Part shown: piece after piece, positions 16,107 to 36,287 of the stretch
How the letters are laid out: each line of letters opens with the position of its first letter
Position numbering within the stretch: the stretch's first letter is position 1
NCBI GenBank assembly: GCA_964630255.1
Contig: CAZVRP010000002.1
Coordinates: forward strand, 1,774-65,773
Reading direction: 5' to 3'
Origin: an uncultured Oscillospiraceae bacterium
GTDB taxonomy: Bacteria > Bacillota > Clostridia > Oscillospirales > Oscillospiraceae
DNA: 64,000 bases
Program-made: the position numbers and the translations under genes
Notes under the pieces: generated by a model
Seen by the model: only the letters and a program-made list of their open reading frames with translations
Databases searched by the model: none
Told to the model about the DNA's origin: nothing

Positions 16107-16661
16107 TTGGACAGCTGGGAAAAACTCAAGGCCGACTGCGGCGGCTGCCAAAACTGTGAACTGGGCAGGACCCGGCATAACCTTGTGTTTGGCGTGGGCA
16201 ATGAACACGCCGACGTGATGTTCATCGGCGAGGGTCCCGGCGAACAGGAGGACCTGCGGGGGGAACCCTTCGTGGGACCTGCGGGGCAGCTTTTGGACAC
16301 CATGCTGGCAATCATCGATCTGGACCGGACAAAGGTGTATATCGCCAACATCGTCAAGTGCCGGCCGCCCAGAAACCGGGACCCGCTGCCGGATGAGCAG
16401 TCCGCCTGTATCGGCTGGCTCCACCGGCAGATCGCCCTGGTCGACCCAAAGATCATGGTCTTTCTGGGGCGCATCGCCGCCATGGCATTTATCAAGCCGG
16501 ACTTTCGCATCACCCGGGAGCACGGGCAATGGTTCGATGTAGCCGGCCGCCGGGCCATAGCCATGTACCACCCCTCCGCCCTGCTCCGGGACCCCTCCAA
16601 GCGACCGGAGACCTTTGTAGACCTAAAGATATTGCAGCAGGAGATCAAAAAAACCTTATGA
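16107..16661 (+). CDS. Family 4 uracil-DNA glycosylase
   Basis: CGGCQNCELGRTRHNLVFGVGNEHADVMFIGEGPGEQEDLRGEPFVGPAGQLL...KCRPP...HPSALLR. The start is uncertain: TTG at 16107 after GAAAGG, or GTG at 16026. Confidence 0.8.
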   Translation: MDSWEKLKADCGGCQNCELGRTRHNLVFGVGNEHADVMFIGEGPGEQEDLRGEPFVGPAGQLLDTMLAIIDLDRTKVYIANIVKCRPPRNRDPLPDEQSACIGWLHRQIALVDPKIMVFLGRIAAMAFIKPDFRITREHGQWFDVAGRRAIAMYHPSALLRDPSKRPETFVDLKILQQEIKKTL

Positions 16662-17560
16662 TTGACTTACACCCCATCTCTCTGACCGACAAGTCCTGGA
16701 TTGATGCCTGTGTCCTGGCAGAAAATTCCCCCAGCGCGGATTATAATTTCGGCAACATGTTCCTCTGGGATGAAACCTTCCACCAGCAGGTAGGCCGGCT
16801 GAACGGCCGTATGATCGTGCTCCCCTGCTATGAGGACGATCCTTTTTTCTCCTGGCCTGTCGGCTCCGGCGAGCTTCTGCCGGTCCTGGAGGAGATGCGC
16901 GCCTATGCCGGAACCCACGGTTTCCCTTTTGTCCTCCGGGGCGTGACGGCGGATCATCTTCCCATGGCGTGGGAGCTGTGGGGAGACACATGTACCGTCA
17001 TGGAAGAGCGGAACCTGTGGGACTATCTCTATGCCGCGGAAAAGCTGGACACGCTCTCCGGAAAGCATCTGCACGGAAAGCGCAACCATATCAACCGCTT
17101 TGAGGCGGAAAACGACTGGCATTTCGCTCCTTTGACCCAGGCGGATTTTCCCGCCTGCCGGGTCATGCTGGACGAGTGGATGGACTCCTGCGGCGAGGAT
17201 GAACGCGACGGCATCGACGATGAGTACCGGGCTATACGCCGGGCCTTTGAGCACTACGAGGACCTAGGCCTGGACGGCGGCGCATTGTGGGTTGGCGACC
17301 GGCCCGTGGCTTTTACCATGGGGGAGGTCATCAGCTCCGACACCTTTGACACCCACTTTGAAAAAGCGTATGCGGACATCAACGGCGCATACACTATGAT
17401 AAACCGGGAGTTTGTCCGCTACATCCGGCGCAAATATCCAAGCGTCCAATGGATAAACCGGGAGGATGACACCGGCCGGCTCAGCCTCCGCCAATCCAAG
17501 CTCAGCTACCATCCGGACCGGATGGTTGAAAAATACAAGTTGGTGTTTGACAATGTCTGA
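16658..17560 (+). CDS. DUF2156 (MprF C-terminal, lysyl-PG-synthase-like) domain protein
   Basis: The ATG overlaps the UDG stop (ATGA). Motifs typical of DUF2156: DYLYAAEKLDTLSGKHLHGKRNHINRF, FEKAYADINGAYTMINREF, NREDDTGRLSLRQSKLSYHP. Confidence 0.75.
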   Translation: MIDLHPISLTDKSWIDACVLAENSPSADYNFGNMFLWDETFHQQVGRLNGRMIVLPCYEDDPFFSWPVGSGELLPVLEEMRAYAGTHGFPFVLRGVTADHLPMAWELWGDTCTVMEERNLWDYLYAAEKLDTLSGKHLHGKRNHINRFEAENDWHFAPLTQADFPACRVMLDEWMDSCGEDERDGIDDEYRAIRRAFEHYEDLGLDGGALWVGDRPVAFTMGEVISSDTFDTHFEKAYADINGAYTMINREFVRYIRRKYPSVQWINREDDTGRLSLRQSKLSYHPDRMVEKYKLVFDNV

Positions 17561-23477: not shown

Positions 23478-23506
23478 CCCAGGAGGAGCGGCAAGCTCCT
23501 CCTGGG
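23478..23506. terminator. Bidirectional terminator between convergent genes
   Basis: CCCAGGAGGAGC-ggcaa-GCTCCTCCTGGG, a 12-bp stem with T-rich runs on both sides. Confidence 0.75.
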
Positions 23507-23515
23507 GTCGTGTTT

Positions 23516-23887
23516 TTAAGCCTTAGGCTCCTCCGCCGCAGGCGTCTCCACCTCGGAGGCGGCGGCCTGGGCGGCGTCGGCGGCAGTCACGGGGGCCTCC
23601 GGCGCGACCTCTGCGGCGGCAGGCGCGGCGGGCTTCTCCTCCTCATTGAAGACCACCAGATCGTCCTCCACCTTTTTGCCGGCGTTCTCATCGATGTTCA
23701 AAACCTTCATGGCCTTTTTCTTGGCCTTACGCCACAGCACACCGGCGACAGCGCCGCCGGCCACCACCACGCCCACCACAGCCTGGATGGCGAAGGTGGT
23801 CACGGAGGGGTCTACATAGGCGTGGGCAGGCATCATGAGGATGGCGCTGAAGCAGACCATATAAAACAGGGTACGGAGAGTTTTCAA
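23516..23887 (-). CDS. Hypothetical small membrane protein (signal peptide, one TM, Ala/Pro/Glu-rich tail)
   Basis: TTG start, 8 nt after AAGGA. Sequence: KTLRTLFYMVCFSAILMMPAHA; TM AIQAVVGVVVAGGAVAGVLW; low-complexity tail. I recognise no family. Confidence 0.5.
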   Translation of the reverse strand: MKTLRTLFYMVCFSAILMMPAHAYVDPSVTTFAIQAVVGVVVAGGAVAGVLWRKAKKKAMKVLNIDENAGKKVEDDLVVFNEEEKPAAPAAAEVAPEAPVTAADAAQAAASEVETPAAEEPKA

Positions 23888-23942: not shown

Positions 23943-24731
23943 TCAAGGAAAATCTTCATAGCTTTTGTCCAGCGCCCTCAATTCCGCCAGGGTGTCGATC
24001 TCGACGATATCCCCGGGGGCGCACAGCCGCGCCCGAACGGCGTACTGATCCGGGTATAGGTTCAATGGCACCTGCTCAAAGAAGATATCCCGGCCTCCAG
24101 GCGCATTGAACGCTTCCCGGATATGACCTGCCAGTCGGGCGCCGTCCGCAGCCGTCCAGTAAGACAGCACGAACATCTGACAGCAGTCCTCTCCGCCCTT
24201 TTGCACGGACCGGATGCGGCCTTCTCCGTCCACGGTGAAGCACCAGTCGTCAGTGCGTTCCACCGGCAGGGCCAGAAAGTTGGACTCATACTGGTATTTG
24301 GTGATGAGTCCGGGATCAGACAGCAGCAAATCCGCCTCCATCACATAGGCGTTTTGCAGATGCTCCGCCGCCAGCAGCGTGGAGTAAATGGCGTTGGTCC
24401 GGGCGTACAGGCCGTTTTCAATAAATTGCACGGTCGGGTATTTTTCCAGCAGGACATTGAACATCTCCGCCTTATAGCCCCGGACGATGTATATCTCCTC
24501 AATGCCGGCGGCCGTCACCGCGTCCAGCAGAGAGTCGATGATGCGCCTTCCATGCACCGTCACCAGAGGCTTGGGAATCCGCTCTGTCAGAGGCGCCATG
24601 CGGCTGCCAAACCCGGCGGCCATGAATACGGCCCGCCGCACCCGATAAGGCTCCAGCGCCGCCAGCTCCGCCTCTGTGGCCAGGCCAAGCCGCTCTTTTC
24701 CCGTCAGCCGGTCAAACTCCGCTCTCGTCAT
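23943..24731 (-). CDS. LicC-like phospho-alcohol (phosphocholine-type) cytidylyltransferase
   Basis: The NTP-transferase motif is AVFMAAGFGSRMAPLTERIPKPLV. The LicC-like body is IVRGYKAEMF...NAIYS...MEADLL. The start overlaps the kinase gene stop. Confidence 0.75.
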   Translation of the reverse strand: MTRAEFDRLTGKERLGLATEAELAALEPYRVRRAVFMAAGFGSRMAPLTERIPKPLVTVHGRRIIDSLLDAVTAAGIEEIYIVRGYKAEMFNVLLEKYPTVQFIENGLYARTNAIYSTLLAAEHLQNAYVMEADLLLSDPGLITKYQYESNFLALPVERTDDWCFTVDGEGRIRSVQKGGEDCCQMFVLSYWTAADGARLAGHIREAFNAPGGRDIFFEQVPLNLYPDQYAVRARLCAPGDIVEIDTLAELRALDKSYEDFP

Positions 24732-25642
24732 ACCGCCGCCTCCCCATAATGGGCCATGCGCTCAAGGCTGTCCCGGGCGTAGGTGACGCCCAACAGAGCA
24801 TAGTCCCGGTAAAAGGCACGGCTATCTGGCTCCATCTTTGCCTTGAACACGCTCCAGGCGCCCCACATAATGGCCACGGCGGCACAAAAGCCGAAAAGCT
24901 CCCTGCACTCACCGGCTGTGGGCTCCCGGTCCAGATACATCCCCAGCAGCTTCACGCAGGCGGCCTCGTCCAATTCTCCGTCATGGCAGAAGTCCCCCAG
25001 GTCCTCCATGGGCACGCTGACGGCGGCGTACTCCCAGTCGATCAGAGCCGGGGTCCGGCCCGCCGGAAACAGAAAGTTGTGGGGCAGGCTGTCCCCATGG
25101 ACCACCTGGAATCGGCTCTCGTCCTCATAGAGCTTTGAGCAGGCGGCAATGACCGTCTCACGCACGTTCCAGAAATCACGGGGATAAAACTCGTTTCCAT
25201 CCACCCTCTCCACACACTGGATGTAGTACGTCAGCCGGTCCAGAGCCGTATTGCGCTTTTCTCCCCGCAGACGCAGCCCATGAAACCGGCGCAAAAGCGC
25301 CATCGCGCCGCGCAGCTCGCTTTCATCAGATGTATCGACCACATGGCAGTCCGGCCAGTACTCCGTTACACGCACACCTGTATCCGGGTCAAAATAACAT
25401 ATAATATCCGTGATGTTCTCATGCCGCAGCCGCGCATACAAGGCGCACTCCGCCCGGCGGTCGCAGAACATTTCCGTGCCCCGGCCGGGTACCCTGAGCA
25501 GATAGTCGCCCTGGTCCGTGCGGAACACATATGTATCGTTGGATATGCCTCGGCCCGGATTATCATAGGCGTCCAACACACTGTCCGGGGACATATCCAT
25601 CACCTGAAGGAACAGCTCCGTTATCTCTTTATTCACTCCCAT
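24728..25642 (-). CDS. Choline/ethanolamine-kinase-like (LicA/APH fold) kinase
   Basis: Start at MGVNKEITE (25642). Brenner motif is VVHGDSLPHNFLF. Choline-kinase motif is LIDWEYAAVSVPMEDLG. Confidence 0.75.
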   Translation of the reverse strand: MGVNKEITELFLQVMDMSPDSVLDAYDNPGRGISNDTYVFRTDQGDYLLRVPGRGTEMFCDRRAECALYARLRHENITDIICYFDPDTGVRVTEYWPDCHVVDTSDESELRGAMALLRRFHGLRLRGEKRNTALDRLTYYIQCVERVDGNEFYPRDFWNVRETVIAACSKLYEDESRFQVVHGDSLPHNFLFPAGRTPALIDWEYAAVSVPMEDLGDFCHDGELDEAACVKLLGMYLDREPTAGECRELFGFCAAVAIMWGAWSVFKAKMEPDSRAFYRDYALLGVTYARDSLERMAHYGEAAV

Positions 25643-25658
25643 GGACAAGAACCTTTCC

Positions 25659-27236
25659 TCAGATGAACGCCCTGCGGAACAGGCGGTTCCATACGCTCCG
25701 GCACAGCAGTCCCAGCGCGCCGCAGGTCTTTCCTTCAAAAAGCCTGCCCGCCAGGTATAGGGCCTTGACCCGGATAGCGCCGATATCCTCCGCCGTGAGA
25801 GGATCGCCGTCCAGGACCACAAAATCCGCGATCTTTCCCACAGTCAGGCTCCCCCGCTCCTTCTCATCAAAGCTCATATAGGCGGGGTTGTAGGTGATCA
25901 TCCGCAGGGCGTCCAGCCGGTCAAGCCTCTCATCCGGGTCTGGATGACTGGTGGAGCAGGCCATGGCCCGCAGAGGGTCCGGCCTGGTGCACGGCCCGTC
26001 CGATCCGTCCCCCATCACGATGCTCAGCCTGCTGAGGCTCCCCAGGGGGTTGAGTCTGGCCGCCCGTTCCGCGCCCAGGATGCGGTCCAAATATTCCTGT
26101 GGCTCCTGCTTCCAGTATATAAAGGGCGACTGGACCGCCAGGCACAGCCCAAGCTTCTTCACCCGCTCCATCTGGTCCGGGTGGATCATGCAGGCGTGAA
26201 TCATCACATGCCGGGCGTCGGTCCATGGCTTGTCCGCCATGGCCGCCTCATAGGCGGTGATACACTGCTCCACCGCCGCGTCGCCGATAGCATGCATGGA
26301 TATCTGCAGGCCCATCCGGTTGGCCCGGACGGCGAAGTCGCTCACCTGCTCCTGGGTGTAATAGAGTATCCCCTTGTTCTCCGGGTCGTTGGCATAGGGC
26401 TCCAGCAGCGCCGCATCCTCCGATCCGAAGCAGCCGTCCAAGGCCAGCTTGAAGCATCCCCCTACCCGGGGCAGCTTGCGTTTTTTTACCGCCTCCAGAT
26501 CCATGGTCTGGAAGAAGATACGGTATGCCTGGGGCAGACCCGGCGCCAGAATGTTTATCATATCCACATCCAGGTCCCCGGGATAGCCTACGCCCTCCAC
26601 GTTGTGAACCAGACCGATGCCCTTCTCCGCCAGAGCCGCAGCCCCCTTGGACAGGCCCCGCACCACGTCCATAATGGGGATCTTGGCCGTGACCTCGTTG
26701 ACGCCCTTGAAAAAGGCGTTCTGATACAGCCAGCCTGTCTCGGCGTCGCAGCCCGGATCGGACTTGACCTCATCGGACAGCATGGCCAGCATGGCGCTGT
26801 TGCACACGGCCGCGTGTCCGTCGTACTTCATGACCACCAGAGGACGGTCCGTCCACTTGTCCATGTCCTTCCGCTCCGGCAGACGCCCCTCCGCCACCGT
26901 GTGGGCGGAGCAGCCGTAGCCCATGAGTACTCTGGCCTTGGGGTGGGCGACGGCATAGGCGTGGACGATGGACGCCGCCTCGTCAAAGCTGGCGGCGTCC
27001 ATGAGATAAAAGGTCTGCTCAAAGGTGCACAGGGACTCAAAGTGCATGTGGGTGTCTCCAAAGGCAGGAGTCACCACAGTCCCGCCCAGATCAACGCGCC
27101 GGGCGCTCTGATACCGCGCCGGAACGTCGTCAGCCTCCCCCAGCCAGACAATCCGCCCCTTTTTCACCGCCATGGCGGTGAAAAACCGATTCTCCGGTTC
27201 GCAGGAGATGAACCTCGCATTGGTATAAAGCTCCAT
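25659..27236 (-). CDS. Amidohydrolase-3 (YtcJ-like metal-dependent hydrolase)
   Basis: 525 aa. N-terminal metal motif is PAFGDTHMHF. Further motifs are ...SMHAIGDAAV... and ...VLDGDPL at the C-terminus. Confidence 0.8.
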   Translation of the reverse strand: MELYTNARFISCEPENRFFTAMAVKKGRIVWLGEADDVPARYQSARRVDLGGTVVTPAFGDTHMHFESLCTFEQTFYLMDAASFDEAASIVHAYAVAHPKARVLMGYGCSAHTVAEGRLPERKDMDKWTDRPLVVMKYDGHAAVCNSAMLAMLSDEVKSDPGCDAETGWLYQNAFFKGVNEVTAKIPIMDVVRGLSKGAAALAEKGIGLVHNVEGVGYPGDLDVDMINILAPGLPQAYRIFFQTMDLEAVKKRKLPRVGGCFKLALDGCFGSEDAALLEPYANDPENKGILYYTQEQVSDFAVRANRMGLQISMHAIGDAAVEQCITAYEAAMADKPWTDARHVMIHACMIHPDQMERVKKLGLCLAVQSPFIYWKQEPQEYLDRILGAERAARLNPLGSLSRLSIVMGDGSDGPCTRPDPLRAMACSTSHPDPDERLDRLDALRMITYNPAYMSFDEKERGSLTVGKIADFVVLDGDPLTAEDIGAIRVKALYLAGRLFEGKTCGALGLLCRSVWNRLFRRAFI

Positions 27237-27250
27237 GCCGCTATCCTCCC

Positions 27251-29059
27251 TCAGCCGATATGTATCTGCTCCAGAGCGTCATACAGCGCCTGGTTGTCCG
27301 TCTCGTCCCGGACGGCCAGACGGATGAAGTCCCCGCCGCCGAAGCCGTTTTTTGCTGACAGGTCCTTGATGAGCAGATCGTTATTTTTCAAAAGCATATT
27401 GGCCAAATCCTTGGAGCGTATGCCCTCCACCCGGCACATGATGTAGTTGGCCTGCGAGGGATAGGGCTTCAAAAAGGGGAAGGAGGCCAGTTTTTCCGCC
27501 ATCTTGGTCCGCTGGCGGACGATCTCGTCGCAGGCCGCCTCGTAATGGGCGGCGTACAGACCGTAGATCTGGAAGAAATACTCACCAAAGGAGTTGATGT
27601 TCCAGATGGGCAGCAGACCGCGCAGTTTCTCCATCCAGGCCCGGTCGGCGCAGGCGGCCACACCCAGCCGCAGGCCGGGGACGCCATAGCTCTTGCTGAC
27701 GCTCTTGATCACCATCATGTTGGGGTATGTTTCCAGGATTTCATTGTCCAGCAGGGTGAACCGCATCGGTCCTTCAGCAAAATCCACGAAGGACTCGTCC
27801 ACCACGAACCTCGTCCCGTACTCCCGGCAGATCTCCGCCAGCTCCAGGACCTGCTCCCGGGTCAAAAACGCGCCGCTGGGATTGTCGGGATTGATGATGA
27901 CCAGCTCGTCCATCTCCCGGGCGGCCCGGCGAAGCTCGTCCATGTCGAAGCGGTAATCATGGGCCGCTCCGTTCAGGGGGACGATCTCACACTTGGGGAA
28001 GCAGCGGATATACTCGTTGAAGGCGGGGATGGAAATGGCCATGCGCCCTTTGACCGTCCGGCCCAGGGCATTAATGAGCTCGGCGGCGCCGTTGCCCGCC
28101 AAAAGATAGTCCTCCTTCACCCCGAACATCTTCCCCGCCACCAGCTTCTGCACATACATACCAGAGGGGTAGTCCGTCAGGAGGGTATGGAAGAAATACT
28201 CCATCTGCCTGACCATTTTGGGAGGTGGAAAATAGGGATTGACCAGATAGCAGAAATCCTTCAGGCCGTTGAACCGCCAATAGCCTCCAAAGTGGAGTTC
28301 ATAGGCCCGGAGCCGGTCCTCGTCGGCGGCGAAGAGGGTATTGGCGATGTCCAGGTCCTGCACATCGTCGATCTCATACCATTTCATATCCCCCATCTCA
28401 AACGCCTTGAGTCCGGCGAAGGGCAGATGGGCCAGGGCCTTGAGGACCATCTCATAGTATTGGTTCTCCCCATAGGCGCGGATGTATGCTTCCATGAACG
28501 GCAAATACTGCTTCCGGGAGAACGCCCGGCTGAATTTATAGACGTTCACCGTCTTATAGTACTGGTCGGCGCTGTCGAAGCGGAAATCCTTTTTCTCCAC
28601 GAACTCCCGGATGACGCCGTCCTCCCCCACCAAAGTCATGGTGCCGTCCATCCACTGCTCGAACTTGGCCACCGCCACCATATTGGGTTCCGGCGCGTCC
28701 ACCATGCGGCGGATGAGCGACCGATCATAGATCAGGTCGGATTCCAGCAGGATGGTATCATCCCGGGCCAGCTGCTCCCGGGCCAGATACAGAGAATAGA
28801 TATTATTGGTGCTGGCATAGTCCGGGTTTTCCACGAATTCCAGCTCAAAATCCCCCAGCTTCTCCCGGGCGAACGCTTGCAGCTTCTCGCCCTCATAGCC
28901 TGTCACGATGACGAATTTATGTATGCCCGCCAGGCGCAGCGCGTCCGCCGCATGCTCCAGCAGCGTCTGTCCGCCCACCTTCACCATGCACTTGGTCTGA
29001 CCGTCCGTATAGGCGCCCAGACGCTTGCCCATGCCGGCCGCCAGCATCAATGCCTGCAT
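27251..29059 (-). CDS. Bifunctional N-terminal nucleotidyltransferase / C-terminal class I-II PLP enzyme (HisC/CobD fold)
   Basis: The N-terminus is MQALMLAAGMGKRLGAYTDGQTKCMVKV (NTP-transferase G-loop). The C-terminal half has the PLP-lysine region IKSVSKSYGVPGLRLGVAAC, plus NPDNPSG. Confidence 0.8.
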   Translation of the reverse strand: MQALMLAAGMGKRLGAYTDGQTKCMVKVGGQTLLEHAADALRLAGIHKFVIVTGYEGEKLQAFAREKLGDFELEFVENPDYASTNNIYSLYLAREQLARDDTILLESDLIYDRSLIRRMVDAPEPNMVAVAKFEQWMDGTMTLVGEDGVIREFVEKKDFRFDSADQYYKTVNVYKFSRAFSRKQYLPFMEAYIRAYGENQYYEMVLKALAHLPFAGLKAFEMGDMKWYEIDDVQDLDIANTLFAADEDRLRAYELHFGGYWRFNGLKDFCYLVNPYFPPPKMVRQMEYFFHTLLTDYPSGMYVQKLVAGKMFGVKEDYLLAGNGAAELINALGRTVKGRMAISIPAFNEYIRCFPKCEIVPLNGAAHDYRFDMDELRRAAREMDELVIINPDNPSGAFLTREQVLELAEICREYGTRFVVDESFVDFAEGPMRFTLLDNEILETYPNMMVIKSVSKSYGVPGLRLGVAACADRAWMEKLRGLLPIWNINSFGEYFFQIYGLYAAHYEAACDEIVRQRTKMAEKLASFPFLKPYPSQANYIMCRVEGIRSKDLANMLLKNNDLLIKDLSAKNGFGGGDFIRLAVRDETDNQALYDALEQIHIG

Positions 29060-29078
29060 ATCATCCGCTCCCCTTTCA

Positions 29079-29876
29079 TCAATCTTCCCGGAGCAAACGG
29101 GCGTACAACCCTAAAAAATCGTAGCCCATCCGCCGGTGCAGAGACAGGGTGTTCTCATTTTCCGCCCCCAGAAAGGCAAGTCCGCGCTTTCCCTCCCGCA
29201 GCACCAGATTCCATGTACTGGCGGTGATGGCCCGGCCCAGTCCCCTGCCCCGGAGCTCTGTATCCGTGACCAAGCCGCTGATGACGGCCAGCTCCTCCGT
29301 CTCCGCGCTGGTGGCGTTGGTGGCCACCAGGCGGCCTGTCTCGTCCCGCATGACGAACAGGCGGCCAAAGCCGGTCTTCAAGCGGTCCGTGAGCTGCTGA
29401 CACAGGCTCTCATAGGTGTAGACGCTGTTATAGATCGGCTCCTTCATCATCAGAGCCGCGATCTCCGGCACATCGGCCATGCCCGCCTGCCGCACGGCCA
29501 GGTCGGACCTTCCGTCCATCAGGCGGCTGGTGGTGATGATATGGCTCAGCTCATAGGCGTACGTATCCTTCGTCTTTCCCAGCAGCTTGTCGATCGTCGC
29601 CTGAGAACCGGTGACGCACTTGGGCCGCAGCTCGTCTATCAGGCCCAGGGCGTCGCGCCAAGGGAACTTGTCCCGGCTGTAGAGATGCAGAGTGTCAAAA
29701 TACCGGTAGGCCACGCCCTCGATCTCCTCGCCGTCCCCGCTGATCCAAAGGCCCACATCCGGACCCTGTGCGCCGCATTCCAGCAGGTCCATATAGAGAT
29801 AGAAGCACTGGAACTTGCCCTCGCCTATGTACTCCACCACCTGGGGGATATAAGAATCGTCACATTTGATCGTCAC
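29079..29876 (-). CDS. GNAT family acetyltransferase
   Basis: The C-terminal acetyl-CoA motif is ISGLVTDTELRGRGLGRAITAST...LHRRMGY. Confidence 0.65.
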   Translation of the reverse strand: MTIKCDDSYIPQVVEYIGEGKFQCFYLYMDLLECGAQGPDVGLWISGDGEEIEGVAYRYFDTLHLYSRDKFPWRDALGLIDELRPKCVTGSQATIDKLLGKTKDTYAYELSHIITTSRLMDGRSDLAVRQAGMADVPEIAALMMKEPIYNSVYTYESLCQQLTDRLKTGFGRLFVMRDETGRLVATNATSAETEELAVISGLVTDTELRGRGLGRAITASTWNLVLREGKRGLAFLGAENENTLSLHRRMGYDFLGLYARLLRED

Positions 29877-29879
29877 GGC

Positions 29880-31769
29880 TCAGATTTCCCTTTCCTTCTT
29901 TTGATTTTCCAGCATCCGCCCGATGAGGTATTGGGCGGCGCATTTTCCGCTCTCGCCGAAGTTATATATCCGCTCCCGGCGCACCTGCTCCAGCGTCTCG
30001 GCCCACTCCCTGCGGCCGGACACCATGCCGTCGGCGGTCGCCGCCGCCTTTTTCCGGACCTCTCCCGGCTCCAGGGCCACGCCGATGACGCTCCGTATCT
30101 TCGCGTCCGGGGCGCACCGGGCGATGTCCTCATCGGACCAGTCCTCGTTCACCCGCTTCTGAGGGGTGTTGATGAACAGCACCGGCTTTTTCGTCGCCAG
30201 GGCGTACTCATAGCCGATGTTGGACCAATCCGTCACCAGCACATCCGCCGCGAACACCGTCTCATTGGAGCTGAAATTCAGCTGGAAACGGAAGCGGGCC
30301 GCGTCATAGTTCCTGCAGTCCGCCATGAGCTTTTCCAGCCGCTGGGGGAAGCGGCGTATGTACTGGGGATGAGGCCGGACCGTCACATCGTATCCCGCAG
30401 CCAGAAGGGGCTCCGCCAGATCGGCGAGGCAGCTCTCCAGAATGTTCCCCGCCTGCCAGGAGGGCGCGATCAGCACCGTCTTCACAGCGTGCACGGTCTT
30501 TTCCATCCGGTCATACTCCGCCGCCATGTTATCCACCACGCCATAGCCGCAGGGCACCAGCTTCTGGTCGGGCAGGCCGTATTTTTCGTTGTAGCCCCGC
30601 ATCTCCACGTCGAAGCCGGGCGTGGGGGTCAGCAGGGTGTCGAAGTGGTCCAGCGCGCCCTTGCGCAGCGTCACAAGGCCGGAAAAGATGCCGTGGAACA
30701 CATACACGTACTCGATGTCCTTGCGGACGTAGCTGCGCTTATAGTGATAGGTGTTCAGATCCGGCATGGTCATCAAAACGATGTCCGCGTCCATCTTCAT
30801 GAACAGGGTGATGAGCCGCCGCTCGCCGATATAATAAGGCTGGATACGCGGCTCCTTTTCCGCGATGGCGAATATCTGATCTTCCGGGTCGCTGGTGACA
30901 TAGTTTATCACCACGTTCGTCCGGGCCAGCAGCGCCTCGATGATGTTCTGGAAATATTTATAAAAACCGCTGGCCTCGGAATAGAACACCAGCCGCTTGT
31001 TGGCCACGGAGAAGAACCGCTTGTAATCGGCCTTCTCCCGCTTTTTCAGTTCTTTTGTCTGGGCCTGTCCAAACTGATCCAGATCCGCCAGCTCTTTCCG
31101 GCTTTGTTCCAGCGCCTCATAGTCCACATACTTTTTCGGCGGCATGACGGCGTTGCAGGCCAGCTGCACCAGGATGGAGAACAGGTTGGAGAATATCCAG
31201 TACAGCGCCACGCCTGTGGAAACAAAAATACCCAGCACAAAGGATATGCCAACGGATACGCCGTTGGTGGACATCTGTTCCGCCCGGCTCTGCTCCCGCT
31301 GGAGGGGATTGATCCGGTTCTGGGCAAAGCTCAGCACAATGGCCGCCAGGCCCGCTCCCAATGGCATGAGCCAGGTCCAGCCCCCGTCCCGGCAGGGGAT
31401 GAGGCCCAGCTTGGGCGCCGCGCCGGAGTCAGTGATGGTGTGGATGACCCCGATGAGTCCCAGAAGGATGATGATCTGGATGACCAGGGGGATCATGCTC
31501 AGAAGGGGCCGGTAATGGTGGCGCTTGTACAGCGCCGCCTGCTCGTCTCCGATGCGCTCCCGGTCGCCGTAATACTCCGCCTTGATGCGGTTCACATCCG
31601 GCATGATGGACACCATCTTCAGGCCGTTGGCGTTGGTCCACAGGGACACAGGCATCAGGATGATCTTCGTCAGCAGCGTGAACAGGGCGATCGCCGCCAC
31701 ATAGTTGGGTACCAGGGCGTAGCACCAATCCATCACATAGCCCAGGATACCCGCCAGAAAATCGATCAT
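29880..31769 (-). CDS. Fusion protein: N-terminal YidC/Oxa1 insertase domain + C-terminal TagB/TagF-type CDP-glycerol glycerophosphotransferase domain
   Basis: - Residues 1 to about 215 are YidC-like: NYVAAIALFTLLTKIILMPVSL, MPDVNRIKAEYYGD, PLLSMIPLVIQIIILLGL, GVALYWIFSNLFSILVQ.
- Residues from about 265 to 629 are TagF-like: VLIAPSWQ, VTVRPHPQ, VLVTDWSNIGYEYALATKKPVLFI. Confidence 0.85.
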   Translation of the reverse strand: MIDFLAGILGYVMDWCYALVPNYVAAIALFTLLTKIILMPVSLWTNANGLKMVSIMPDVNRIKAEYYGDRERIGDEQAALYKRHHYRPLLSMIPLVIQIIILLGLIGVIHTITDSGAAPKLGLIPCRDGGWTWLMPLGAGLAAIVLSFAQNRINPLQREQSRAEQMSTNGVSVGISFVLGIFVSTGVALYWIFSNLFSILVQLACNAVMPPKKYVDYEALEQSRKELADLDQFGQAQTKELKKREKADYKRFFSVANKRLVFYSEASGFYKYFQNIIEALLARTNVVINYVTSDPEDQIFAIAEKEPRIQPYYIGERRLITLFMKMDADIVLMTMPDLNTYHYKRSYVRKDIEYVYVFHGIFSGLVTLRKGALDHFDTLLTPTPGFDVEMRGYNEKYGLPDQKLVPCGYGVVDNMAAEYDRMEKTVHAVKTVLIAPSWQAGNILESCLADLAEPLLAAGYDVTVRPHPQYIRRFPQRLEKLMADCRNYDAARFRFQLNFSSNETVFAADVLVTDWSNIGYEYALATKKPVLFINTPQKRVNEDWSDEDIARCAPDAKIRSVIGVALEPGEVRKKAAATADGMVSGRREWAETLEQVRRERIYNFGESGKCAAQYLIGRMLENQKKEREI

Positions 31770-31793
31770 TCGTTCATCTCTCCGTTTGCGCCA

Positions 31794-33557
31794 TTAATAG
31801 AAGGAGTCATACAACGGCTCAATGGCGTCGGCCACGCCATAATAATACCAGTACCGCTCCTTGCTCATGATGGTATCCCGGTCGCCGTCATAGCGGAAAG
31901 TGCCGAAGACGTTGTACCGCTCGACGCCGTTGGCCTCCGCATCCCACTGGTCGATGTTGCCGATCCACTCCACCTCCGGGTAGCTGCGCATGTATCCCCA
32001 GACAGAGGTGGTGCGCATGCGGTGATCACCCTCCTCCCAATCATAGACGGTGGTGCCGTCGCAGTAATCGCTGTAATCCCCGCCCACCAGGGACAGGATG
32101 GTGGGGATGATATCCCCCTGGGCCACGGGAGCGCTGGTGGTGGTGAATTCCTCAAAGGTCTGGCCGGGCAGCTTGATGAGGAAGGCCGCCTGGAAGCACT
32201 CAAAGTATCCATGGTCGGCGGATATGATGATGGTGGCGTCGTCGTATACGCCGATCTGCTTCAGCTGGTCAAAATATTCCTCCAGGGCCAGAAGATAGCC
32301 GTGGAGCTGGTCCTCCCGGTTGGTCTCGTCCTCATCGCAGAGGTAGCCGTCATAGTCCACCACATAGGGGAAGTGAGCGCCCTGCATGTGATACCAGTTG
32401 AAGACCTTATGGTCATCGGTGAGGGTCAGCCCCTCCTCCTGGAGCGCCTCATAGAAGTCATAGTTGATGCGCAGCTTGGTCACGCCCTGATAGGCGGAGA
32501 CATCCACGATACCGCCGGTAGAGACGCAGAAAGGATTTTTCAGGATAGTAGGCATATAGCGGTACAGGGACATATCTATCAAAAACTCAAAAAACTGAGG
32601 CGTGATGACCAGATCCCCGGCCTCCACGATATTATCAGCCTTGCCCAGCATGTTCTCCGCGCCCAGGGCGGCGTAGTTGGACTCCAGGAACAGGTTCACC
32701 TGATACCCGTTTTCATGGAGCGTGTCATAGAAATTGTCGGCCTTCTCGCTGTGCCAGGCGTTGTATACCGCCTCCCTGGTGGGCACGGTGAGGTCCAGCT
32801 CATTGCCGGTGAGAAGGTACATCAAAGACGGGAAGGTGAAGGAGTACCGGGAGGACATGTTATCAAAATACAGAAAGTCCTTGAACACATCATAGAAGTG
32901 GGGGTCCCGCTCCAGCGCCTCCTCAAAGATGAGGGGAGAAAGCTGGTCAAGGGTCAGCACCAGGATATTTTCATCGCTGGAGAGGGTAAACTGCTCCTCC
33001 CCGGACAACTGGTAGTTGGGGACACTGTCGTCCTTGGGCACCCAGGTGGTCGCAAGGCTGACTCCCTGGGCCACGACCAGCGCTGCGCAGACGATGAAGC
33101 CGGCCGTACGCATGATATCCGGGAAAAACCAACCCAATGCCATGATCGCCAAAATACATATAGTCCATATAGCCAGGTTCTTATAGGCCGCCGGCGCATC
33201 GCCGCGCCAGTCGAACTCCGTACCGTCCAGTGTCCCCAGGTCGCCGTTGAGCAAAGCGCCCTGGAAATAGAAGAGCACAGAGATGCCCAGCAGCAGAGCA
33301 AACGCCAGGCGGTGGGCCTTGCCGGGGATGAGGGCGAACACCGCCGCAATCACGACAGACGCCGCAACCGTCACCCACGCAACGGAGAACAAAAGATCTC
33401 CGGCGGCGAAGGTCAGATACATCTGGTTGGCGTTCACGATATCCAGCGGGCCGAAAAACACACCTGTAAAGCACAGGAAAAACGCGGGAACGAGCAGCGT
33501 CAAAAACCGCTTGAGCCACCCTTTCCAATATCCGCCCCTTACCTTTTTCTCCTCCAT
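31794..33557 (-). CDS. LtaS/sulfatase-family membrane phosphotransferase
   Basis: The ATG at 33557 follows GGGAGG. It has five N-terminal TM segments and an extracellular sulfatase domain (LVLTLDQLSP, YSFTFPSLMYLLTG, IIISADHGY). Confidence 0.8.
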   Translation of the reverse strand: MEEKKVRGGYWKGWLKRFLTLLVPAFFLCFTGVFFGPLDIVNANQMYLTFAAGDLLFSVAWVTVAASVVIAAVFALIPGKAHRLAFALLLGISVLFYFQGALLNGDLGTLDGTEFDWRGDAPAAYKNLAIWTICILAIMALGWFFPDIMRTAGFIVCAALVVAQGVSLATTWVPKDDSVPNYQLSGEEQFTLSSDENILVLTLDQLSPLIFEEALERDPHFYDVFKDFLYFDNMSSRYSFTFPSLMYLLTGNELDLTVPTREAVYNAWHSEKADNFYDTLHENGYQVNLFLESNYAALGAENMLGKADNIVEAGDLVITPQFFEFLIDMSLYRYMPTILKNPFCVSTGGIVDVSAYQGVTKLRINYDFYEALQEEGLTLTDDHKVFNWYHMQGAHFPYVVDYDGYLCDEDETNREDQLHGYLLALEEYFDQLKQIGVYDDATIIISADHGYFECFQAAFLIKLPGQTFEEFTTTSAPVAQGDIIPTILSLVGGDYSDYCDGTTVYDWEEGDHRMRTTSVWGYMRSYPEVEWIGNIDQWDAEANGVERYNVFGTFRYDGDRDTIMSKERYWYYYGVADAIEPLYDSFY

Positions 33558-33806
33558 GGGACTATAAACCTCCCTGTTGACTTTTTCTTTGTAGCCTTGG
33601 CGCACATCATAAACAAATAGTAATATTTTTCGCTTTGCATACGACACACATTATACTACTATTTTACAACATTAAAATAATATCATGATTTTTCGCGGAT
33701 TACAACCTATTTTATGACAGTGCGCGATTTCCGCCGTTCTTCCGGGGGCAAAATGGGGGATTTTTGCAGGCAGGCAAGATTTTTCATCCATACGTGAACT
33801 TACCTA

Positions 33807-33835
33807 TTGACGGATGCCGGGAAAAAATTTATAAT
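33807..33835 (+). promoter_or_regulatory. Near-consensus sigma-A promoter (TTGACG-17-TATAAT) for the divergent acyltransferase
   Basis: TTGACGgatgccgggaaaaaattTATAAT, about 70 nt before the ATG at 33908. Confidence 0.6.
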
Positions 33836-33907
33836 TTCTTCATGAAATCTTAATGTTGTGGGGCGCAGCTTATGTCGCCCCGCAGCTATGTACAAGGAGT
33901 GTTCACC

Positions 33908-34948
33908 ATGCCGACTCTCGCCGCACCGCTGCAAGCACCCGCTCCCGCCGCCAGAAAGCGCTGGTGGCGGGCCGACAATATCCGCTGGATATTGCTTTTC
34001 AACGTCATCGCGGAGCACATGCTCACCCAGACGGACATCACCTACAACTGGCTGGTGACCGTGCTGGTGTGCTGGTCCCGCATGATAACCATGCCCGCCT
34101 TCTGCTTTTTGTCCGGGTACTTCTCCAAGAAAGGCGATAAGAGCTATCAGAGCGCTATTTTCGACTTTTTGATACCATATATCATCTTTGACACTCTGTT
34201 CGCGGCGATATTCGGCAGCTCCTCGCCCAACATCTTCTCCCCCACCTTCGCCTACTGGTATCTGCTTTGCATGTTCTGCTGGAAGATCATGACCAAGGCC
34301 CTGCAGCAGATCAAGTACATCATCCCGCTGAGCATCATTGTGGCCCTGCTTGTAGGCGGCCTGGACGATGTTGACCATTTCCTCAGTCTGAGCCGGACCA
34401 TCGGTTTCCTGCCTTTCTATGTGGTGGGCATGAAGATGAGCCGGGAGGACGTGGCCAAGCTGGAGAAGCTGCCCAAGCTCCCTGTACTGGCGGTGACCCT
34501 GGCTGTGATGGCGGTCTGGGGCTGGCTGAATGTCAAGGAATACTTCCACATCGATTTTTACTACTACTGGATGCCCTACAGCGGGGACGATACCTACTGC
34601 TATACCTTCTGGTACGGCTTCATGCTCCGGGCTCTTGGCTATGTGGTCAGCGGGCTTTTGATCGTTTTTCTGTTCTGCATGGTGCCGGATAAGTCCCTGC
34701 CCGTCATCCGGGACGGCGGCACCCGCACCATGGTCCCCTATCTGCTGCATACATACTTCATCATGAACATGAAATACCTTTACAGCTTTGTGCCCGCCCT
34801 GAACCACTGGTTCATCACCATCCCCATCGCCCTGGCCATGGGCGTGTTCCTGCTGTGGCTGCTGGGTCTGCCGGCACTGGACGAGCTATACAAGGACCTG
34901 ATGAAGTTTATAAAAAAGCTCCTTTACAAGGAGCCGGAAAAAAACTGA
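33908..34948 (+). CDS. Acyltransferase-3 family membrane O-acyltransferase
   Basis: The ATG at 33908 follows AAGGAG. Sequence: RADNIRWILLFNVIAEHML...MPAFCFLSGYF. About 10 TM segments. Confidence 0.75.
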   Translation: MPTLAAPLQAPAPAARKRWWRADNIRWILLFNVIAEHMLTQTDITYNWLVTVLVCWSRMITMPAFCFLSGYFSKKGDKSYQSAIFDFLIPYIIFDTLFAAIFGSSSPNIFSPTFAYWYLLCMFCWKIMTKALQQIKYIIPLSIIVALLVGGLDDVDHFLSLSRTIGFLPFYVVGMKMSREDVAKLEKLPKLPVLAVTLAVMAVWGWLNVKEYFHIDFYYYWMPYSGDDTYCYTFWYGFMLRALGYVVSGLLIVFLFCMVPDKSLPVIRDGGTRTMVPYLLHTYFIMNMKYLYSFVPALNHWFITIPIALAMGVFLLWLLGLPALDELYKDLMKFIKKLLYKEPEKN

Positions 34949-34960
34949 ACGCCTGGACGC

Positions 34961-35000
34961 AGAACACGGCCGCTCCCCTTCCTGGGGGCGGCCGTGTTCT
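34961..35000. terminator. Long hairpin between convergent genes (probable bidirectional terminator, weak U tract)
   Basis: AGAACACGGCCGC...GCGGCCGTGTTCT, a 13-bp stem with an inner CCCC/GGGG extension. Confidence 0.5.
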
Positions 35001-35025
35001 TATCCCGACATTCTTATCGCAAATA

Positions 35026-35595
35026 TCAGGTCTTCTCTCCGGTCGGAGCCTCGTCCCGGTGGAAACGCACGGCGCCGGTGCGGTCCAGCGCTACCATGAT
35101 GGCGGGGATGAGGATCAGCTGCAGGACAATGCCCGGAATGGCGGTCAAAAACGCGCCGGAGACGAACATCTGCCACGTGAACGCCTCGCCGCCCACGCCG
35201 CTGAGGATCGCCCGGGCCGCGGCCCAAACCACCCGGCCGCCCAGCATGGCGGCCACAAGGGCCTTATACAGGGTCCGCAAACACTGCCAGCGGGAACGGC
35301 TGTATAAAAAGCCCGCGATGGAACCGTAGGCCGCCAGCTCGAACGCCATGGCGATGGCCGTGGGGTAAAGGACCGGCATACCGAACAGAAGCGACCTCAG
35401 CAGCGGCGTGATAAAGCCCAGCACAAGCCCATACTGCCAGCCGCAGATGAGGCCGCACAGAAACACGGGAAAGTGCATGGGGCAGAGCATATTGCCGATC
35501 TGAGGTATCTGCCCGGTGATGAACGGAAGAACGAGGCCGATAGCCAGGAACATAGCCGAAAGGACAAGATTTTTGGTGCGGTGCTTCATATTCAT
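35026..35595 (-). CDS. ECF transporter S component (substrate unknown)
   Basis: 189 aa, six TM segments: LVLSAMFLAIGLVLPFITGQIPQIGNMLCPMHFPVFLCGLICGWQYG. No ecfA/ecfT genes are adjacent. Confidence 0.75.
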   Translation of the reverse strand: MNMKHRTKNLVLSAMFLAIGLVLPFITGQIPQIGNMLCPMHFPVFLCGLICGWQYGLVLGFITPLLRSLLFGMPVLYPTAIAMAFELAAYGSIAGFLYSRSRWQCLRTLYKALVAAMLGGRVVWAAARAILSGVGGEAFTWQMFVSGAFLTAIPGIVLQLILIPAIMVALDRTGAVRFHRDEAPTGEKT

Positions 35596-35720
35596 GCTTG
35601 GTTCTCCTTATCAAAAGTCATTGATCGCCGTCCTTCTGGTCGGCCGTGCCTTCCTGGCTTTTTTACGGAGCGCCTGGGGTATGAGCCTCCCCTGCCGCCT
35701 TCCTGACGGCGGGAACCGCT

Positions 35721-36287
35721 TTAAGGGAACAGTCTGCTCGTGTTGATTATAATGCTGTCCGCCCCGGTTTGGCAAGAGCGAAAATACATCTCCTCCATAG
35801 GAATCCATATATCCTGAAACGCCTGGAAACGCGTTCCCTCCCGTCTCATCAGCCGGCGGCGCTGCACATCGCTTCCGCAGGTGAGAAATATCTTCACATC
35901 ATACAGATCCGCGAGGCGGGGATGGTGGGAATAGCTGCCCTCTATCACTGTTAGCGGGCGCGGCGGCACGGTCACGGACGTTTTGCTCCTCCACGGACGG
36001 TAATCCACCGGCTGTCCCTCGCGGGCCGGGAGGAGCACCTCCCGCCGGACGCGGTCCAGGTCCATATTCCCCGCCGGGATATTCTCCCAATCGGGGTCGC
36101 GCCGGTCAAAGGGCATATAAAAATCGTCCATGTGGAAAACCCGGCAGGAAAACCGCGCCTCCATGGCGGCGGCCAAGGCCGTCTTTCCGCTGCCGCACCG
36201 GCCGTCGATGGCGGCGATCACCGGCGTCCCCGCCGTCAGGGCGGCCTCCACCGCCGCCATGGCCGGAGCAAAGCCCTCCCCGTTCAT
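35721..36287 (-). CDS. Uridine-kinase/PRK-family P-loop kinase
   Basis: 188 aa from MNGEGF. P-loop is AAIDGRCGSGKTALA. Colinear with Udk: VIEGSY...LADLYDVKIFLTCGSDVQRRRLMRR. Confidence 0.65.
   Translation of the reverse strand: MNGEGFAPAMAAVEAALTAGTPVIAAIDGRCGSGKTALAAAMEARFSCRVFHMDDFYMPFDRRDPDWENIPAGNMDLDRVRREVLLPAREGQPVDYRPWRSKTSVTVPPRPLTVIEGSYSHHPRLADLYDVKIFLTCGSDVQRRRLMRREGTRFQAFQDIWIPMEEMYFRSCQTGADSIIINTSRLFP

Follow-up and report, generated by a model that had tools for sequence, protein, structure and literature searches.

Here we describe a fusion protein encoded in a 64,000-nucleotide stretch of DNA from an uncultured Oscillospiraceae bacterium (GenBank assembly GCA_964630255.1, contig CAZVRP010000002.1, positions 1,774 to 65,773; hereafter the window), in which a YidC-type core of five transmembrane (TM) helices with an intact polar groove has a TagF-type phosphotransferase of the GT-B fold attached to it on the cytoplasmic side. 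The fusion is genetically locked to an LtaS-like membrane phosphotransferase, to a small procoat-like membrane protein that we call S, and to genes for cytidylyl-activated head groups, and it forms the core of a gene set that most likely puts phosphonate or amino-alcohol-phosphate groups on the cell surface. We hypothesise that a relay dedicated to group transfer uses a recruited YidC-type groove as its passage across the membrane, a proposal whose chance we place close to, and somewhat below, even.

The fusion gene lies on the minus strand (29880..31769), where a single open reading frame (ORF) of 629 amino acids starts with an ATG, has a GGAGAG Shine-Dalgarno sequence 8 nt 5' of it and contains no internal stops. 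Three parts can be distinguished, all on this strand: a YidC/Oxa1-type five-TM module (residues 1-214; 31128..31769), delimited from Pfam and NCBIfam matches, alignment to the PDB and an AlphaFold2 model; a cytoplasmic linker of two helices (residues 215-255; 31005..31127), delimited from the secondary structure of the model and from conservation; and the TagF-like GT-B phosphotransferase domain (residues 256-629 plus the stop codon; 29880..31004), delimited from Pfam, a family profile, conservation and a fold match. The original prediction, made from the sequence alone, had recognised a YidC domain and a Glyphos_transf domain in this ORF, and both assignments stand, each being above its Pfam cut-off and matching the YidC and the TagF fold, respectively. 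Specifically, the Pfam model 60KD_IMP matches residues 23-206 over profile positions 1-162 of 163 (E=1.2e-29, 103.8 bits, cut-off 35), and Glyphos_transf matches residues 394-533 (E=5.3e-8, 32.7 bits, cut-off 22.1), the latter being a partial match to profile positions 150-292 of 367. The NCBIfam model TIGR03592 (yidC_oxa1_cterm) is narrowly reached, with 90.6 bits against a cut-off of 84.3. When the single sequence was searched against the PDB the matches were limited to YidC, residues 5-202 aligning with E. coli YidC (3wvf; E=1.2e-9) and K35 facing R366. A profile of the C-terminal half, built with stand-alone relatives, matches the TagF-like polymerases Cps3D (8qoy) and TarL (8va1) at E of about 1e-6, and here H467 in 'RPHP' aligns with H433 in the 'KMHP' of TarL; the motifs picked out originally, VTVRPHPQ among them, are thereby upheld. 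In TarL, H433 (equivalent to TagF H584) protonates the leaving group and H300 (equivalent to TagF H444) is the catalytic base (PMC10901376).

The AlphaFold2 model of the fusion, based on 32 homologues, has a mean pLDDT (predicted local distance difference test) of 88.6 and a pTM (predicted template modelling score) of 0.71, and consists of five TM helices, a C1 cytoplasmic hairpin between TM1 and TM2 (helices at residues 39-65 and 70-83), two linker helices and a GT-B domain. The top PDB match of this model in Foldseek is TagF (3l7k, chain 3l7k_D; E=2.7e-9), and its N-terminal part matches E. coli YidC (6al2_A) with a root-mean-square deviation of 3.9 A over 213 columns. The topology suggested originally, with the C-terminus of the YidC module in the cytoplasm, is borne out. 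In addition to the C1 hairpin, the YidC module has the polar groove residues T31, K35, Q98, W191 and N195. The model places H359, part of an 'FHG' motif and invariant in 87 of 87 sequences, in the N-terminal Rossmann half of the GT-B domain, where it may be the counterpart of TagF H444, judging from its invariance and the whole-domain fold match. On the plus strand, a 1494-amino-acid ORF (29136-33620) runs antisense across the fusion and the LtaS-like region; its codon-position GC content (0.80/0.38/0.58) mirrors that of the real genes, which marks it as a high-GC artefact and no gene.

A census of the architecture, proposed with the original prediction, has now been run and places the full-length fusion in >110 clusters at 90% identity, spanning 55-100% identity, and in 72 of 185,579 species (a pattern-limited scan of one genome per species), a patchy distribution; an exhaustive HMMER search of 1.84 billion representative sequences gave 392 matches at E<=1e-30. 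The hosts are chiefly Oscillospiraceae, Lachnospiraceae (including strain A4), the Eubacterium coprostanoligenes group (ATCC 51222), Ruminococcus and Clostridium aminobutyricum DSM 2634, with a few metagenome-assembled genomes (MAGs) labelled Lentisphaerota, Eggerthellaceae and others, some of which may owe their taxonomic labels to binning errors. A separate observation concerns L019, L020 and L051 (and L022, L030 and L032): versions 43-52% identical to the clostridial ones occur in MAGs that bear the labels Planctomycetia, Methanocorpusculum (an archaeon) and Bacteroides, and errors of binning or horizontal transfer are the suggested causes. The three Lentisphaerota loci, one of them on a 741-kb contig, look real and have no LtaS-like gene nearby. 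The concern that a frameshift or an assembly error had merged two genes was also examined and is ruled out by the intact ORF, the number of full-length clusters and species, and the conservation of the junction itself.

Among 87 diverse sequences, the median identity to the window copy is 0.46 for the YidC part and 0.56 and 0.38 for the two halves of the GT-B domain, the membrane part being conserved to the same degree as the enzyme part. With regard to the groove, position 35 is lysine in 84 sequences and arginine in three, Q98 is present in 86 of 87, W191 and N195 in all 87, and T31 is essentially invariant. The GT-B domain has its own invariant residues (H359, R465, H467, D514, S516 and E521, with both histidines in 87/87), and junction residues 211-255 are also conserved.

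Public annotation calls the fusion 'membrane protein insertase YidC' and nothing more; its scores fall hundreds of bits short of all the YidC equivalog models, the best being 68 bits against a cut-off of 479. The context is always an accessory operon, and the rnpA-yidC-jag arrangement was never seen. On the question, raised originally, of a separate housekeeping yidC, the answer is divided: there is no second yidC within the 64-kb window, and in the Lentisphaeria locus L022 the contig that bears the fusion also encodes, 4.5 kb away, a canonical YidC of 546 amino acids (205 bits on TIGR03592, with a periplasmic N-domain). This canonical YidC, the patchy distribution and the accessory-operon context argue against a housekeeping role. 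The fusion is an extra YidC paralogue rather than the housekeeping insertase, with direct proof in one genome, that of L022.

The gene that precedes the fusion in the window (31794..33557, minus strand; alternative GTG start at 33647) encodes the LtaS/EptA-like membrane phosphotransferase, a protein of 587 amino acids with five TM helices and an extracytoplasmic domain of the alkaline-phosphatase fold. It has weak matches to the Pfam Sulfatase and Phosphodiest models and falls below the LtaS equivalog NF053595 (18 bits, cut-off 970). The profile of its family matches S. aureus LtaS (2w5q; E=1.7e-11), with 'ADHG' on the LtaS 'GDH', and D204, T241, H395, D448 and H449 are invariant in the family. 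Its AlphaFold2 model (pLDDT 89.2, pTM 0.84) has the five TM helices and the alkaline-phosphatase-fold domain, and Foldseek matched it to full-length PbgA, EptA and MCR-1, plus LtaP. Profile and model together identify it as an enzyme of the LtaS/EptA/PbgA type with metal ligands and an invariant threonine as the putative nucleophile. Characterised relatives of this enzyme (LtaS, GacH, EptA) draw head groups from membrane lipids via a threonine intermediate.

The original prediction had proposed a functional link between the fusion and this neighbour, and there is strong support for it from natural triple fusions and from co-occurrence, as 57 of the 72 loci have the LtaS-like gene no more than 10 kb away from the fusion. 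Typically the LtaS-like gene ends about 12 nt ahead of the fusion start, and the adjacency persists even where the LtaS-like protein is 23-30% identical to the window copy. Among the top 150 representatives there are eight clusters in which the LtaS-like protein is fused in front of YidC-TagF, eight in which it follows YidC-TagF and 38 of plain YidC-TagF (fused in 16 of 54). By hydropathy both orders are topologically coherent, the LtaS-like part being N-in/C-out and the YidC core N-out/C-in, and one triple fusion (L074) was verified on its contig. Several loci have two to four LtaS-like paralogues alongside a single fusion, as would be expected if one donor served several acceptors.

The protein S was discovered by de novo clustering of the neighbours of the fusion, as a recurrent protein of about 100 amino acids for which there is no Pfam family match. 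The window copy (23516..23887, minus strand; 123 amino acids) is matched by the hidden Markov model (HMM) of the family with E=7.7e-41; its signal peptide ends in AHA, and after it come YVDPSVTTFAIQAV..., a single TM helix and a cytoplasmic tail that is first basic and then acidic; the translocated tail peptide is YVDPSVTTFAIQ... The family as a whole has the same design: a leader with an AxA-type site, the motif Y-(V/I/L)-D-P-(S/A) plus about five residues, one TM helix and a basic-then-acidic tail. In the translocated tail Tyr+1 is strictly invariant, and the other hydroxyls vary (Ser5 is Ala or Asn in some). The HMM finds S in 66 of the 72 loci, and S also lies directly 3' of the L074 triple fusion (5587-5853). 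Four of the six loci that lack S are cut by contig ends and L063 has a frame-broken N-terminus, leaving L024 alone as an apparent true absence. In L067 and L071 the S module forms an N-terminal extension of the LtaS-like protein, to which it is joined through its own C-terminus; fusion through the N-terminus of S was never seen. Moreover, L065 (4289-6934) and P0143 have a Peptidase_S26 domain (signal peptidase I) at the N-terminal end of YidC-TagF, with 117 and 108 bits. A possible salt bridge between groove K35 and the Asp of the S tail was examined by covariation: Lys and Asp occur in 61 of 61 fused systems, with zero variation, and the four split systems described below all have Asn in the YidC-like protein, with Asn in the S tail of two of them and Asp in that of the other two. 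The classical procoat route consists of YidC, leader peptidase and a short tail, acidic in nature, that is translocated.

The neighbouring genes also point to what is transferred. At about 19-28 loci the neighbours of YidC-TagF are AepZ, a fusion of a cytidylyltransferase with phosphoenolpyruvate (PEP) mutase, phosphonopyruvate decarboxylase and a PntC/LicC-like nucleotidyltransferase. The first three score 410, 411 and 381 bits against equivalog cut-offs of 361, 320 and 312, respectively, and by these assignments the set is a predicted 2-aminoethylphosphonate (AEP) pathway plus its activating enzyme. In many bacteria PntC enzymes make AEP activated by cytidine monophosphate (CMP-AEP); the work on them leaves the user of this product open and suggests LicD-like enzymes on the strength of analogy (PMC6697681). 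YidC, TagF and sulfatase-type proteins are unmentioned in that work. In the AEP operons of Lachnospiraceae and relatives, YidC-TagF and the LtaS-like enzyme are the only transferases. In the clade of the window the place of the phosphonate pathway is taken by genes for a kinase, a nucleotidyltransferase fused to a CobD-like enzyme (NT-CobD-like), a LicC-like nucleotidyltransferase and a GNAT-like protein. In P0157 YidC-TagF continues at its C-terminal end into a choline/APH-type kinase, and an NT-aminotransferase fusion of the NT-CobD type adjoins an unfused TagF-like gene in L077. The NT-CobD-like protein of the window reaches 175 bits on TIGR01140, under its cut-off, and co-occurs with the fusion in 17 loci; a literature search for such a fusion turned up cobalamin papers alone. 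It is a candidate maker of a donor in which an amino alcohol is activated by cytidine diphosphate (CDP), and the CobD-like decarboxylase suggests that the head group in the window is probably such a CDP-amino-alcohol. What stays constant is thus the transfer machinery, and what varies is the head-group supply.

This supply is at odds with the donor assumed in the original prediction, which was CDP-glycerol. The window operon has no glycerol-3-phosphate cytidylyltransferase of the tagD type and no tarIJ gene, and across the loci LicC/PntC nucleotidyltransferases, AEP or hydroxyethylphosphonate pathways, or kinase and decarboxylase genes are found instead. As judged from gene content, CDP-glycerol is very unlikely as the donor, and CDP-glycerol transfer or teichoic-acid polymerisation as the default reading was rejected on these grounds.

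We traced the nearest relatives of the TagF-like domain that are not fused (about 370-390 amino acids) to their contigs, and four of these loci (L076, L078, L079 and L080) have a stand-alone YidC-like gene of 199-229 amino acids each. The YidC-like protein of L076 scores 63 bits on 60KD_IMP, and the Pfam assignments of the other three were precomputed. In these split loci an S-type gene is immediately 5' of the YidC-like gene, and the neighbours are a cytidylyltransferase-PEP mutase, the TagF-like gene and an Fe-alcohol dehydrogenase; in L076, L079 and L080, unlike L078, there is also a call for phosphonopyruvate decarboxylase. The Fe-alcohol dehydrogenase in place of the AEP transaminase suggests a hydroxyethylphosphonate head group, rather than AEP. 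Importantly, the split loci keep the S, YidC-like and TagF-like genes adjacent, which argues that the YidC-TagF partnership is functional and no accident of fusion. L076 also bears the LtaS-like gene and is located in an RgpF rhamnan cluster, and in C. aminobutyricum the LtaS-like gene, the fusion and S stand in this order at the end of a Wzt/GT1/GT2 polysaccharide cluster. A further type of fusion involves an extracytoplasmic repeat domain of 200-300 amino acids with 'GWAF...SGFY' motifs and no Pfam match, which is a separate gene in L075 (571-1485; Natronincola) and is joined, behind a signal anchor, to the N-terminus of YidC-TagF in P0124 and P0126.

Taking the set as a whole, we infer that a conduit or scramblase role of the YidC module, one of the readings put forward originally, is the best explanation. 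In the relay that we propose the TagF-like domain would charge a carrier inside, the YidC groove would pass the head group and the LtaS-like enzyme would transfer it outside. Operon enzymes would produce a CMP- or CDP-activated head group, in many relatives CMP-AEP or CMP-hydroxyethylphosphonate, and in the window probably a CDP-amino-alcohol, to which the kinase, both nucleotidyltransferases and the CobD-like decarboxylase would contribute. The TagF-like domain, positioned where the groove opens to the cytoplasm, would move the phospho- or phosphono-alcohol to the hydroxyl of a membrane carrier, most simply diacylglycerol or a glycolipid, with release of CMP. The groove, probably together with S, would let the polar head group reach the outer leaflet in a scramblase-type passage, and the LtaS-like enzyme would then take the head group from the lipid via its threonine nucleophile, as LtaS, GacH and EptA do with phospholipids, and deliver it to its destination, which may be wall polysaccharide, teichoic acid, glycolipid or protein, regenerating the lipid. 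We favour this relay because it is the simplest model that employs every part, and we hold it tentatively, its probability falling clearly short of even. E. coli YidC scrambles phosphatidylethanolamine (PE) labelled with nitrobenzoxadiazole (NBD-PE) in proteoliposomes (bioRxiv 10.1101/2023.09.01.555937).

Several observations weigh against the relay. The profile of the N-terminal GT-B half finds nothing in the PDB even at E<=10, and sequence comparison leaves H359 unaligned with TagF H444. Where the fused family has Lys35, Asn is present in all four split YidC-like proteins, and for the unfused TagF-like genes of L075 (Natronincola) and L077 no YidC-like gene was seen within 8 kb. The LtaS-like gene is frequent and not obligatory, being absent within 10 kb in 15 of the 72 loci, the Lentisphaerota-labelled ones included, and none was seen in the split loci L078 and L080 (the contig of L079 stops at the TagF-like gene). 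The lipid acceptor is a guess, and we know of no TagF-family enzyme that acts on diacylglycerol. Furthermore, S and the signal-peptidase fusions appear to suit a protein-insertion role of the YidC module at least as naturally.

This last point is the starting point of a second explanation, in which the YidC module is a dedicated insertase for S and the TagF-like domain acts on or serves S, not a lipid. A hydroxyl of the S tail would be modified at the groove mouth before or during insertion, S would be a surface phospho(no)-peptide, a carrier or an obligatory subunit, and the LtaS-like enzyme would act downstream. The original prediction had considered a dedicated insertase for the LtaS-like neighbour, which now looks less likely; for S, which it had not noticed, such a role is likelier, given the presence of S in most loci and the signal-peptidase fusions. 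S occurs in 66 of the 72 loci and in all four split systems, always co-oriented with the YidC-coding gene and mostly abutting it, and it is built like a YidC-only substrate, with its AxA leader, acidic translocated tail of about 8-10 residues, one TM helix and basic tail. The conserved C1 hairpin and groove residues, the Peptidase_S26 domain joined to the N-terminus of YidC-TagF, the exclusively C-terminal fusions of S and the LtaS-less core of S, YidC-like, TagF-like and donor genes in some loci all fit as well. However, the fusion of the LtaS-like enzyme to YidC-TagF in 16 of 54 clusters and its multiple paralogues are left unexplained, bulk decoration by means of a single-use protein carrier would be very costly, the tail has zero strictly invariant hydroxyls beyond Tyr+1, and a housekeeping YidC could insert S. 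This explanation accounts better than the relay for S and the signal-peptidase fusions and worse for the LtaS-like fusions, and we regard it as unlikely, though to be taken seriously.

In a third explanation the YidC module is a mere anchor or scaffold, the TagF-like domain decorates an undecaprenyl-linked glycopolymer precursor inside, and the polymer's own exporter carries the product out; the LtaS-like enzyme and S would be co-localised members of a multi-enzyme complex, and LicD or TagF proper likewise act on the cytoplasmic face. TagF-family enzymes do normally act on inner-leaflet lipid-linked polymers and require membrane association (PMC10901376), and the modules of C. aminobutyricum, Natronincola and L076 sit inside polysaccharide clusters with Wzt, GT1/GT2, RgpF, Bac_transf or LCP genes. 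The unfused TagF-like genes of L075 and L077, with no YidC-like gene in the stretch seen, point the same way. A passive anchor, however, should not hold T31, K35, Q98, W191 and N195 near-invariant or evolve as slowly as a catalytic domain, and a separate YidC-like gene in the split systems would be unexpected for it. This explanation also leaves the LtaS-like fusions, S and the signal-peptidase fusions unexplained, and the window operon lies outside any glycopolymer cluster. Thus the anchor role, which the original prediction had offered as one option, is disfavoured, and we consider it quite improbable. That the protein is an ordinary housekeeping YidC with an extra domain, or an artefact of sequencing or gene calling, agrees with the name given by public pipelines and is otherwise negligible in view of the >110 full-length clusters and the 72 species, scores far under all YidC equivalog cut-offs, the canonical YidC on the same contig in L022, and the patchy distribution and accessory-operon context.

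The relay and the insertion of S are compatible, as the YidC module may insert S and then work with it. In a radical form of the relay S itself would be the carrier, its N-terminal tail (invariant Tyr+1-x-Asp/Asn-Pro), freed by signal peptidase, serving as a swinging arm that reaches into the cytoplasm-facing groove for charging by the TagF-like domain and swings outward for discharge by the LtaS-like enzyme. This form would explain the universality of S, the lack of N-terminal S fusions, the C-terminal fusion of S to the LtaS-like enzyme, the signal peptidase I fusions and the retention of S beside the single-polypeptide LtaS-like-YidC-TagF protein. In a milder form, a lipid carrier would be scrambled by YidC and S.

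Comparison with known systems places the fusion between several of them. It shares with YidC/SpoIIIJ/Oxa1 proteins (PF02096, TIGR03592) the five-TM core, the C1 hairpin, a basic TM1 residue, the polar groove and the fold of E. coli YidC, but differs in being an accessory paralogue, in having a 375-amino-acid enzyme domain in place of the C-terminal tail and Lys for Arg in TM1, and, relative to housekeeping YidC, in being always found in a decoration operon with a small partner protein. TagF, TagB, TarL and the TagF-like capsule polymerases (PF04464; 3l7k, 8va1, 8qoy) have in common with it the GT-B fold, the HP-motif histidine (H467, TarL H433), a cytoplasmic position at the membrane and possibly the second invariant histidine, which here lies in 'FHG' (PMC10901376). 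The fusion is, however, distant from them (32.7 bits over a partial profile), is anchored by YidC rather than by amphipathic helices and has no tagD or tarIJ. Its neighbours are predicted to make CMP-phosphonates or CDP-amino-alcohols, so donor and probably acceptor differ, and there is no sign of a polymerase. In the Lic and Pnt systems (LicA-LicC-LicD; PntC and CMP-AEP; PMC6697681) a kinase or phosphonate pathway likewise leads through a cytidylyltransferase to surface transfer, and PntC/LicC-like genes occur in our operons; here a Pfam scan of the window operon genes gave no match to the LicD family, and the place of LicD is taken by YidC-TagF, the LtaS-like enzyme and S, an arrangement undiscussed in PMC6697681. 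The LtaS-like enzyme resembles LtaS, GacH, EptA/MCR-1, PptA and OpgB in its five TM helices, extracytoplasmic domain, threonine nucleophile and metal ligands. These known enzymes use bulk phospholipids (phosphatidylglycerol, PE) without a dedicated cytoplasmic charging enzyme, whereas the LtaS-like enzyme is fused or linked to one. The proposed logic of inside charging, small membrane flipper and outside transferase is that of GtrB/GtrA/GtrC, CsbB/GtcA/YfhO and ArnC/ArnEF/ArnT, but no components are homologous (no GT-A, GtrA-like or GT-C protein), a phospho(no)-alcohol is handled instead of a sugar, and the parts can be fused in one polypeptide. Finally, S is procoat-like, as in M13 procoat and Pf3 coat, and some relatives have signal peptidase I and the YidC module in one polypeptide; here, in distinction from the phage proteins, the insertase-like module is dedicated, fused to an enzyme and operon-linked to its putative client.

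The window operon is on the minus strand and extends from a promoter-like site to a terminator, in the order LtaS-like enzyme, YidC-TagF, GNAT-like protein, NT-CobD-like protein, amidohydrolase, choline/APH-type kinase, LicC-like nucleotidyltransferase and S. The promoter-like site (33677..33705, minus strand) is TTGTAA-17-TATTAT with an extended TG, identified by consensus scan only, and the operon is closed by a hairpin terminator (23478..23506, minus strand) with a 12-bp stem, nine G-C pairs and a T-run. Downstream of the fusion on the minus strand lie genes for a GNAT/FR47-like acetyltransferase of 265 amino acids (29079..29876), restricted to the clade of the window (19 loci) and with weak Pfam and NCBIfam GNAT matches; a nucleotidyltransferase fused to a CobD-like pyridoxal-phosphate enzyme of the threonine-phosphate decarboxylase family, 602 amino acids (27251..29059; Pfam NTP_transf_3 and Aminotran_1_2); an Amidohydro_3 family hydrolase assigned by Pfam, 525 amino acids (25659..27236); a kinase of the choline/ethanolamine-kinase or APH family, also assigned by Pfam, 306 amino acids as called (24728..25648); and the LicC/PntC-like nucleotidyltransferase, 262 amino acids (23943..24731), a family found near the fusion in 36 of the 72 loci. 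The operon genes include no glycosyltransferase and no exporter, and on both sides housekeeping genes follow (among them SpoVAD, PheRS and alanine racemase), which supports the view of a self-contained membrane machine. A divergent Acyl_transf_3 membrane acyltransferase (33908..34948, plus strand) is kept beside the operon in 15 loci of the clade. The GC content of 28001-36000, which comprises the 5' half of the operon and the adjacent acyltransferase region, is 0.54-0.59 against 0.60-0.66 in the flanks, and the lower value is compatible with horizontal acquisition. Elsewhere in the window, the plus strand encodes an unusual fusion of 854 amino acids (18654-21218), in which a YacP-like NYN nuclease domain follows a translational GTPase of the EF-G/TetM type (GTP_EFTU, EFG_III/IV/C), and a stand-alone protein of 343 amino acids (16529-17560) whose sole match is LPG_synthase_C, the C-terminal domain of MprF-type aminoacyl-phosphatidylglycerol synthases.

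As the original prediction had supposed, no characterised example of the fusion was found in targeted literature searches or in the phosphonate papers and their supplements, and the machinery of YidC-TagF, LtaS-like enzyme and S was not found in the curated Pfam and NCBIfam models scanned or in the searchable literature. All domains come from known families and envelope head-group tailoring is of a known kind; the machinery itself is undescribed, and there is a substantial chance that its trans-membrane step is mechanistically new. Hundreds of database entries named 'membrane protein insertase YidC' are mis-described.

For phosphonate biology, YidC-TagF and the LtaS-like enzyme are a concrete candidate for the open transferase step of surface tailoring after CMP-AEP. 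For the biology of YidC they amount to a natural experiment, in which a paralogue is hard-wired between inside and outside phosphotransferases and has its own small partner protein and, in some cases, its own signal peptidase, so that the debated lipid scrambling by the Oxa1 family, or a specialised insertion, becomes testable in a defined system. If true, the milder form of the relay would mean that lipid scrambling by the Oxa1 family has, for the first time, a dedicated physiological use, and it would supply the missing transferase step of phosphonate tailoring. The fusion system is common in gut Clostridia (Oscillospiraceae, Lachnospiraceae and the Eubacterium coprostanoligenes group), and zwitterionic surface decorations such as phosphocholine and AEP are expected to affect host recognition, phage adsorption and resistance to cationic peptides.

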